Shown one piece after another: positions 5,721-6,520 of a stretch of DNA of 9,469 nt. The position numbers and the translations under genes are program-made. Below the pieces are notes generated by a model. The model made no database searches, was not told where the DNA came from, and worked only from the letters and a program-made list of their open reading frames with translations. The stretch lies in the IMG/VR virus record IMGVR_UViG_2711768074_000026, one strand, 5' to 3'. This DNA is from a virus (lineage: Duplodnaviria; Heunggongvirae; Uroviricota; Caudoviricetes). Each line of letters opens with the position of its first letter. Positions within the stretch are counted from its first letter, which is position 1.

Positions 5721-5844
5721 AAGGTGATTGTATTCAGTCGGGCAAAGCCCTCCTTCATGATTTGATTAAATTATGATCAAAACGAAGAAGTATCTTTAGA
5801 ATATAATCTTTCTTTTGGAGAAATAATAATCAGGAAGCAATTTA

Positions 5845-5873
5845 GCAACCGAAGGTTGCAATCCCGAAGGGAT
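5845..5873. other. Tandem GC-rich micro-hairpins with GAA loops
   Basis: gcaacc-gaa-ggttgc (5845-5859) and atccc-gaa-gggat (5861-5873); a similar ccgaag core recurs in the hairpin at 8725-8742. Confidence 0.5.
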
Positions 5874-5899
5874 ACCAATACCTTTCATGATCATTAAAG

Positions 5900-6140
5900 T
5901 GATCTAGAATCATCTAGTAACCAGTTAACTACTATTATCTTCAAAGTGATTATTACTATCTTTCTAGAATCAGTTAGTAACTAGTATTAAATCCCTTTCG
6001 AGAAAATCCTTTCAGAAGTGATTCTCGATGCCACGCAGTGGCGTCGCAGACGTTTGAGAGTGAGCGAAGCGAGCGAGCAAACTAGTTAATTCCTTCTAAG
6101 ACCATCTAGTATCATCTAGTTTAAATTAGTTGTTACTAGA
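5900..6140. repeat. CTAG-rich palindromic repeat cluster (TCTAGA/ACTAGT/ATCTAGT units)
   Basis: tctagaatca at 5903-5912 and 5963-5972; related 25-mers 5903-5927 and 5963-5987; catctagt at 6103-6110 and 6113-6120; ttactagaag 6133-6142; eight CTAG within about 240 bp. Confidence 0.6.
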
Positions 6141-6273
6141 AGTAATTGGTTAGCGCTTCGCGCAGTCGGGCTACGCCCTCCTAATTATCTTTTTGGTTAT
6201 TTGTTGTTTTTAGTTTTACACATGAGCGTAGCGAATGTGTTATATAATATCTATGCACGCCCGATCCCCCGCC

Positions 6274-6520
6274 TTGCCCCTCGCTAAGTTAATGTTTTAT
6301 AAAGAGTTTTTATCACCAATCCTTTTCAGGGGCAAAAATGAGGGGCAAAAATTAGATTTTCAGGGGCAATTATTGGCATTTCAGGGGCAAAAATGAGGGG
6401 CAAAATCACTGTTTCCCAGAATTTCAGGGGCAAAAATAGTAGGTTTCAGGGGCAAAAATGGGATAGTAGAATCTTGGGGATTTTATTCGGGGGCAAAAAT
6501 TCAGAATTTCAGGGGCAATT
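6274..6520 (+). repeat. Iteron array: nine direct copies of (TTTC)AGGGGCAA(AAAT) plus one inverted copy
   Basis: Direct copies start at 6328, 6341, 6362, 6383, 6396, 6426, 6448, 6489, 6511 (spacings 13, 21, 21, 13, 30, 22, 41, 22 bp); inverted core ttgcccct at 6274-6281; followed by AT-rich 6521-6600 with near-palindrome atcaaatattttgat. Confidence 0.85.

Follow-up and report, generated by a model that had tools for sequence, protein, structure and literature searches.

Conserved C-GNA-G mini-hairpins beside an iteron module in a hicB-integrating Escherichia coli prophage

Do the short GC-rich hairpins that interrupt an AT-rich, gene-free region of phage DNA act in the DNA itself or in an RNA copied from it? 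The question arises in a 9,469-nt stretch of DNA (IMG/VR record IMGVR_UViG_2711768074_000026; hereafter "the window", meaning the whole stretch at its full length), in which a gene-free region at 5676-7380 (1.7 kb) separates two divergent gene sets. A first-pass annotation had noticed several hairpins there and had suggested a structured non-coding RNA, or a set of RNA processing or stability elements, rather than spacer DNA. We find that the hairpins exist, exceed chance expectation and are conserved, and that their pairing is kept by compensatory changes. The property common to them is geometry, a C:G closing pair around a GNA loop, and not the sequence of their arms. Our preferred reading, plausible but held tentatively, is that they work in cis, as structural elements of the DNA, in a control or origin-like region carried by an uncharacterised, hicB-integrating family of E. 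coli and Shigella prophages.

Geometry, chance expectation and chemistry of the hairpins

The nine hairpins, named HP1 to HP9 from left to right, are given with the other features of the region in Table 1. Every hairpin of the first-pass annotation was present where it had been placed, HP4 with a stem of 5 bp, one pair more than noted, and two 2-bp units that had been missed, GCGAAGC (HP6) and GCGTAGC (HP9), were added. The annotation had also reported no open reading frame (ORF) of at least 64 aa between 5676 and 6392, and we found none; the largest ORF, of 53 aa (6235-6396), crosses an array of short repeats (iterons) to the right of the hairpins.

Hairpins were counted as stems of at least 4 bp with at least three GC pairs and a 3-nt loop, using 2000 dinucleotide-preserving shuffles as the control. 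Between 5676 and 6300 there are 7 perfect triloop hairpins, all within 5740-6178, against a shuffle mean of 0.21, and none of the 2000 shuffles reached 7. Six of these seven read as C-GNA-G on one of the two strands, where 0.011 would be expected, while the rest of the window (~8.8 kb) holds only 2 triloop hairpins, neither of them GNA. Across the 49-kb locus of an intact relative (L003, described below) only 8 such hairpins occur, 6 in this region and 2 in the right arm of the prophage. In addition, 625 nt contain four copies of the exact heptamer GCGNAGC, two read on + (HP6 and HP9) and two on - (HP7 and HP8), compared with an expected 0.08. Taken by strand, GNA loops are present in HP2, HP3, HP4, HP5, HP6 and HP9 on + and in HP7 and HP8 on -; the closing pair is C:G in all 8, with HP2 and HP3 of the CC-GG type.

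Table 1. Features of the gene-free region and the first large gene to its right, in window coordinates
Feature	Sequence	Position	Strand	Remarks
HP1	gggc-AAA-gccc	5740-5750		within 20-mer CAGTCGGGCnnnGCCCTCCT; second copy of the 20-mer at 6163-6182
45-nt block		5761-5805	+	93% match to all RB49-like Krischvirus phages, two copies there
HP2	gcaacc-GAA-ggttgc	5845-5859	+	C-GNA-G
HP3	atccc-GAA-gggat	5861-5873	+	C-GNA-G
Least stable 60-bp duplex of the whole window	TCTAGAATCA..TAGTAAC repeats	5932-5991		-63.6 kcal/mol; window mean -77.9
HP4	gccac-GCA-gtggc	6030-6042	+	C-GNA-G; type A modules only
HP5	cgtc-GCA-gacg	6042-6052	+	homologue of type B (a)cgcc-GTA-ggcg(t)
HP6	GCGAAGC	6064-6070	+	d(GCGAAGC) mini-hairpin, exact match; no variation in types A and B
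AT-rich near-palindrome	TTACTAGAAGT	6105-6140		18-nt arms, no spacer; sequence common to RB49
HP7	gcgc-TTC-gcgc	6153-6163	-	reads GCGAAGC on - strand
HP8	gggc-TAC-gccc	6168-6178	-	reads GCGTAGC on - strand
HP9	GCGTAGC	6226-6232	+	mini-hairpin heptamer
Iteron array	(TTTC)AGGGGCAA(AAAT)	6274-6523	+	9 direct copies at 6320-6523, 1 inverted at 6274
p320		7381-8343	+	ORFan; first large ORF downstream; one-to-one with the GGGGCAA iteron type

Reading rightward, HP1 is followed by the block shared with phage RB49, HP2, HP3, the least stable duplex, HP4 to HP6, the AT-rich near-palindrome, HP7 and HP8; to the right of HP8 come a T-rich stretch, HP9, a GC-rich 30-mer and the iterons. The stretch of minimum stability sits between groups of hairpins.

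The loops belong to a class described as extraordinarily stable in DNA, and they match the most stable mini-hairpin known for DNA, not RNA. The heptamer d(GCGNAGC), which is formed by GNA loops only, has a melting temperature of 70-76 C, its RNA counterpart r(GCGAAAGC) melts at 39 C, and mini-hairpins of this kind are characterised by C:G closure with at least two G-C pairs (GC-GC or CC-GG) beside the loop; C-GNA-G examples have been reported at the G4 origin, RSF1010 ssiA and the N4 promoters (PMC13037366). Specifically, a C:G closing pair renders the d(GNA) triloop 2-3 kcal/mol more stable than G:C (PMC3201870). The 4-6 bp stems of the window are predicted to reach -4.3 to -8 kcal/mol as RNA. 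The 2-bp GCGNAGC units are predicted to be unfolded as RNA, yet they are conserved, and nearest-neighbour DNA parameters, which lack a GNA bonus, leave them unfolded as DNA too. Both strands fold equally as RNA (z -4.35 and -4.44), and thermodynamics proved uninformative for telling RNA from DNA, as z ranges from -4.35 to -4.99 across both strands and both chemistries.

A scan for sigma-70 promoters gave no well-scoring site in 5740-6300 and no strong one reading into the hairpins. The only strong site, TTGACA-17-TATACT at 6715-6743, lies beyond the iterons and reads rightward, away from the hairpins; weak promoter-like sites are present on the - strand at 6615-6588 and 6709-6680. The terminator scan found none in 5740-6300 and no U-tract adjoining the hairpins, the nearest approach to one being the T-rich stretch that begins 3-10 nt after HP8. 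Searches for tRNAs and against Rfam 15 (E<=1) returned nothing in the region, with three weak Rfam matches elsewhere in the window. Among DnaA boxes, IHF sites and 13-mers, the only hit was one loose DnaA-box match at 6214, which we do not count as evidence.

The first-pass annotation had also paired gcgaagcg (6064-6071) with cgcttcgc (6155-6162) over a long range. The two are indeed exact complements, because both sites are GCGAAGC motifs on opposite strands; their sole variable position (T to A in 3 of 10 sequences) is uncompensated, and a long-range helix was rejected as a structure on that ground.

Pairing across related loci

A search of 5,426 complete E. coli genomes gave homologous regions in 58, and others came from 21 IMG/VR contigs, metagenome contigs and many draft assemblies; scans of genome contigs for relatives gave no matches. 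The region is strongly mosaic. Among relatives, the segment 6022-6522 (HP4 to HP9 plus the iterons) is a swappable module, with junctions within ~10 nt of hairpins, and at least six types, lettered A to F, are told apart by their iteron repeats; the window is of type A.

The survey of stems covered 58 loci, in which no stem contains an unpaired mismatch; the sole change in stem length is a 1-nt deletion in an arm of HP3 in a degraded remnant (L002), where a 4-bp hairpin remains. An alignment of type A with type B comprises 180 stem cells, 100% of which hold a standard pair, and slid controls of the same alignment yielded zero compensatory pairs. Three compensations separate the two types: T-A to C-G in HP5, where the loop is GCA or GTA and still GNA; G-C to C-G in HP8, as compared with type B acggc-TAC-gccgt; and G-C to A-T at the outer pair of HP9, type B having ACGTAGT. 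A fourth is found in HP1, whose outer pair changes from G-C to T-A in tggc-TAAA-gcca. The only G.T wobble, in HP5 of two loci (L013/L027), pairs on the + strand only. With the hairpins conserved and their pairing under constraint, the judgement of the first-pass annotation that the region is not spacer DNA is borne out.

Where the loop is GNA, substitutions in it mostly keep to that class (HP2 GAA/GCA, HP5 GCA/GTA, HP7 TTC/TAC), and in relatives HP9, like HP2 and HP5, retains GNA. The HP2 stem shows no variation in the 39 tabulated loci with the module, its loop being mostly GAA and in 12 loci GCA, and the stem of HP7 is likewise invariant, with TTC, TAC or TAAA as its loop in relatives. The loop of HP8 is TAC, AAA or TAAA, and HP1 appears in relatives with AAA, ATA or TAAA or as ggc-TTC-gcc or tggc-TAAA-gcca. 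In types C-F, HP2 and HP3 are replaced by gacgctc-CCT-gagcgtc and then tgc-GAA-gca. As a separate observation, three adjacent substitutions (ttc to gag) at 520-534 of locus L043 turn actcacttcgttcgt into a perfect hairpin, actcac-TTC-gtgagt, which by its sequence looks like the product of a templated quasi-palindrome mutation.

A condensed cassette collinear with the window is also found in all RB49-like Krischvirus phages. In the virulent phage RB49 (L001 3917-4330) it is intergenic, directly upstream of a gene that RefSeq names a DprA-like DNA recombination-mediator protein. In order, it comprises the 45-nt block twice; actcc-GTA-ggagt; tcgc-GAA-gcga with GCGAAGCGA, inside which the GCGAAGC of HP6 is kept; TTACTAGAAGT; and tccgc-TAC-gcgga. 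It has no iterons; a terminator and an early-promoter-like site precede it, and the promoter of the gene itself follows. The cassette is 95-100% identical in 59 Krischvirus records, too uniform for covariation. The match of the window to RB49-like phages at 5761-5835 is a stretch of 45-75 nt, and RB49-like Krischvirus were the only phage-database matches of the window. A second piece of DNA common to the prophage family and the RB49-like virulent phages lies elsewhere in the window, where a 312-nt fragment (966-1277, within a - strand ORF at 934-1404) is 96-98% identical to Krischvirus inh, the inhibitor of prohead protease.

The iteron module and its prophage

The type A repeat is GGGGCAA, in 10 copies; those of the other types are AGTGTAGGTTT (B), ACGGGGA (C), CTTGTACATC (D), TGGAATCTTGGGGATTT (E) and ACCTCCTACA (F). 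For four types (A-D) the iterons pair one-to-one with the protein encoded downstream: p320 is present at 8 of 8 type A loci and p331 at 19 of 19 type B loci, neither with any other type, and types C and D each have a downstream protein of their own. Two other candidates for the partner of the iterons, TerS and a small protein of 59-79 aa, were rejected, as neither co-varies with iteron type. Proteins of the p320 family are distant homologues (16-24% mutual identity) that match no known domain or fold and have a common layout of a beta-rich N-terminal domain, a coiled coil and an acidic tail, seen in the window and in loci L004, L016, L018, L040 and L070; for p320 itself there are only 12 representative clusters among 1.84 billion proteins. 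Presumably p320 binds the iterons.

The window matches a prophage inserted in hicB on E. coli chromosomes. In its intact form (L003, strain HeN100) the prophage spans ~40 kb and carries on one strand the genes for a large serine recombinase, lysis, tail, capsid, portal and large terminase, with a short arm on the opposite strand. Both ends of the window (1-115 and 9367-9469) match IS1414, an astA-bearing element of the IS256 family of insertion sequences (IS), and the window is an IS-flanked deletion remnant of this ~40-kb prophage, integrated by the large serine recombinase. Other copies of the prophage bear IS903B, ISKpn26 and ISApl1-mcr-1 insertions. The family appears to be confined to Escherichia and Shigella. 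It has no close isolated phage, its large terminase being at most 43% identical to that of any deposited phage, so that there is no annotated origin to borrow, and a literature search on the hicB-integrating prophage returned nothing relevant.

Leftward of the gene-free region are genes for a 149-aa protein, a 110-aa protein and a Rha-family protein, and rightward are those for a 59-64 aa protein and then p320. Right-arm proteins gave no replication matches in Pfam or PHROG. Several of them end in ssrA-like tails, e.g. ...VRKAA, ...LRLVA, ...LDFAA and ...AYAYAA (C-termini at 8343 and 8711 in the window, and also in L004 and L016). Such C-terminal tails act as degradation signals, and their presence suggests protease-controlled stability of right-arm proteins.

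The part of the region beyond the iterons has transcription signals of its own. About 300 nt after the promoter at 6715-6743 there is a + strand terminator, agagc-gaaat-gctct plus T7 (7031-7052), with no + strand ORF between, and 6715-7052 could give rise to a small RNA or, for the 59-64 aa gene that follows, to an attenuated leader. The motif TATAAATA, the T4 late-promoter consensus, has four copies (5689, 6814, 7014 and 7373) and within the window is found only in this intergenic region. Two of the copies lie within a 23-nt inverted repeat, CAAGAATTTyCnCnTTATAAATA (5689-5711 on -, 6799-6821 on +), and these sites may be divergent phage-specific promoters. A strong - strand terminator with a 12-bp stem (7309-7338) stands between the small ORF and p320 and would block antisense transcription from the right.

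Possible roles in DNA and in RNA

We favour a role for the hairpins as DNA because the 2-bp units are conserved although predicted to be unfolded as RNA, because the hairpins occupy the most meltable DNA of the window, because an iteron-plus-protein specificity module adjoins them and HP4 to HP9 travel with it, because no strong promoter reads in and no U-tract follows the hairpins, and because their loop class matches that of DNA-stable mini-hairpins. In the mechanism that we propose, the cognate ORFan protein (p320 family) would bind the adjacent iteron array and the neighbouring very AT-rich DNA would open. The C-GNA-G and GCGNAGC units would then fold on the exposed single strands or by way of supercoil-driven extrusion, and the resulting mini-hairpins might resist coating by single-stranded DNA-binding protein (SSB), keep the region open, and mark sites of entry or priming for host replication proteins. 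The origin role, the formation of single-stranded DNA and the recruitment or exclusion of proteins by the hairpins are all presumptive. A bolder form of this proposal, which we consider unlikely, is that the region represents a new kind of phage origin, in which an SSB-resistant, ssi-like array of d(C-GNA-G) hairpins that the host can read is combined with swappable iterons read by a family of ORFan initiators (p320 and its relatives), in a cassette portable between temperate hicB prophages and virulent T4-like Krischvirus.

Known systems offer partial parallels. The motif is identical to the d(GCGNAGC)/d(C-GNA-G) mini-hairpins of Hirao and colleagues (PMC13037366), with four exact heptamers here and six longer C:G-closed stems around GAA, GCA and GTA, set in AT-rich non-coding DNA beside iterons. 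The known examples, however, occur singly or in pairs in origins of single-stranded DNA phages, plasmid ssi sites and N4 promoters, whereas here nine are found in ~500 bp of a double-stranded DNA temperate prophage, and no dedicated primase or polymerase is among the L003 annotations. The oriV of RSF1010 (IncQ) combines RepC iterons with hairpin-bearing ssiA and ssiB on complementary strands (PMC8567376). In an oriV of this type the two ssi sequences are ~40 nt long, each with its hairpin at nt 7-27. The present region resembles it in having iterons with a candidate cognate protein, an adjacent AT-rich segment and C-GAA-G hairpin tips, with GCGAAGC on both strands (6064 on +, 6155 on -), but it has many hairpins rather than two, the helicase RepA, the primase RepB' and RepC are unannotated in the intact prophage L003, and p320 is an initiator only by presumption. 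Lambda O/ori and the Mu repressor operators are iteron or operator specificity modules of temperate phages. As there, a repeat array and its adjacent protein are exchanged together among similar prophages, here in six types; the differences are that the protein is an ORFan without a recognisable DNA-binding domain, that the iterons lie upstream of the gene and not inside it, and that a hairpin cluster stands alongside.

Of the two forms in which the first-pass annotation had cast its RNA proposal, the single structured non-coding RNA finds no Rfam match, no covariation beyond isolated stems of 2-6 bp, no difference between the strands and no strong promoter, and is unsupported; the other, in which a long untranslated transcript contains the hairpins as independent elements for stability, processing, pausing or attenuation, is a serious rival, possible though on balance doubtful. 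The promoter context in RB49 suggests a + strand RNA as this transcript; another possibility is a long leader of the leftward 149-aa operon starting to the right of the iterons, which the weak - strand sites at 6615-6588 and 6709-6680 could drive across iterons and hairpins. The 4-6 bp stems do fold as RNA, with a z of about -4.4 for the region on either strand, and their pairing is conserved with compensatory changes; the sole G.U-compatible variant is on the + strand, as is every strictly GNA loop, and the RB49 cassette follows a terminator and an early-promoter-like site. Moreover, C-UUC-G hairpins with U-tracts resemble real terminators in L003 and RB49, and type B carries a g-CUUG-c. CUUG is a stable RNA tetraloop too. 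Conversely, the region matches no Rfam family, receives no strong promoter, has no U-tracts beside its hairpins and shows no higher-order covarying structure. Its C:G-closed GNA triloops are of the DNA-stable class, where RNA would favour UUCG or GNRA tetraloops, and its conserved 2-bp GCGNAGC units are predicted to be unfolded as RNA (PMC13037366).

The remaining explanations are each less probable. That the palindromes are functionless by-products, which template-switch (quasi-palindrome) mutation made and "corrected" in an AT-rich mosaic prone to recombination and which hitch-hike with regulatory modules, seems improbable to us: the three substitutions that created a perfect hairpin in L043, the strong mosaicism of the region and the capacity of one templated step to yield compensatory changes are all in keeping with it, but it leaves unexplained ~8 independent positions with C:G-closed GNA loops, the class-keeping of most loop substitutions, the hairpin positions kept between strongly diverged modules, and the 95-100% conservation in the 59 Krischvirus records. 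PeSLs (promoter-early stem-loops), as described in RB49 and phi1, consist of a near-consensus sigma-70 promoter and a Gn-loop-Cn terminator between ORFs (PMC2839356, PMC4122927). Similar mobile cassettes mediating modular shuffling would likewise be short, conserved intergenic stem-loops shared between phages at mosaic junctions, and a homologous cassette exists in RB49; the segment collinear in RB49-like phages, the 98%-identical Krischvirus inh fragment in the prophage and the module junctions ~10 nt or less from hairpins are consistent with this, and TTTACA, GCGTAGC and TATAAT at 6215-6248 look like a promoter whose spacer holds a stem-loop. We nonetheless find such cassettes quite improbable, since PeSLs flank ORFans with a promoter and a terminator, whereas here nine clustered hairpins of mixed GC stems and GNA triloops have no ORFs between them, no U-tracts and no adjoining near-consensus promoter (TTGACA-N17-TATAAT), the spacing from TTTACA to TATAAT being 22 nt. 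Interrupted palindromes of 11-15 bp between divergent operons are typical of operators, and double-stranded sites for dimeric regulators might be expected in such a location; this is a very improbable account of the present set, in which six different half-sites would require six proteins, the loop class and closing pair and not the arms are common to the sites, compensatory arm changes preserve complementarity and not sequence, and the 7-nt units are too short. Finally, the virion RNA polymerase of N4 uses promoters with 5-bp stems and 3-nt GGA or GAA loops (PMC13037366), a geometry that HP2-HP4 share, and a phage polymerase could in principle recognise extruded template-strand hairpins here. 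By the criterion of a central purine in the loop of a 5-7 bp stem, HP2 and HP3 fit (GAA) but HP4 and HP5 have a central C, a pyrimidine; L003 has no RNA-polymerase-like gene annotated, its large tail proteins not having been searched for RNA polymerase with hidden Markov models, and RB49 bears the cassette yet uses host RNA polymerase. N4-type promoters are hence scarcely credible.

Several observations also weigh against a role in DNA replication or control. We infer the replication function of the region rather than observe it; the L003 annotation includes no helicase and no primase, p320 matches no Pfam or PHROG family and no fold, and the iteron-plus-protein module could equally be an immunity module of repressor and operator. 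Only 2-3 hairpins are present in types C, D and F. GNA is not strictly kept on the - strand, where HP1, HP7 and HP8 are also seen with the loops AAA, ATA and TAAA, so that all of the hairpins could act on the + strand alone, an arrangement that one RNA would equally allow. Templated (quasi-palindrome) mutation, and not selection, can be the source of compensatory changes in short DNA palindromes, and the RB49 cassette may be transcribed. Furthermore, hairpins of the C-GAA-G/C-UUC-G and UUCG types, bordered by runs of A and T, occur at 41017-41042 and 41123-41143 of L003 and at 6217-6233 of L001; judged by sequence these look like opposite-strand terminators, which means that probable RNA elements, too, make use of the GAA/UUC triloop closed by C:G.

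Precedents exist for GNA mini-hairpins at sites that control replication or transcription, whereas the prophage family is unstudied and the adjoining specificity system unannotated. Were the hairpins ordinary RNA stabilisers, they would be of local interest only. If they do act as DNA, no natural cluster of GNA mini-hairpins in the literature sources consulted would be denser; this would also be the first such cluster tied to a control or origin region of a double-stranded DNA temperate phage, and it would offer a tractable E. coli system for the roles of such hairpins in vivo, including SSB exclusion, primase entry and stabilisation of unwound regions. The iteron-plus-protein specificity system, of at least six types, belongs to a prophage family without recognisable repressor or replication genes, which in some strains carries mcr-1 insertions. 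More generally, the cassette shared with Krischvirus documents that temperate and virulent coliphages have exchanged non-coding control DNA.

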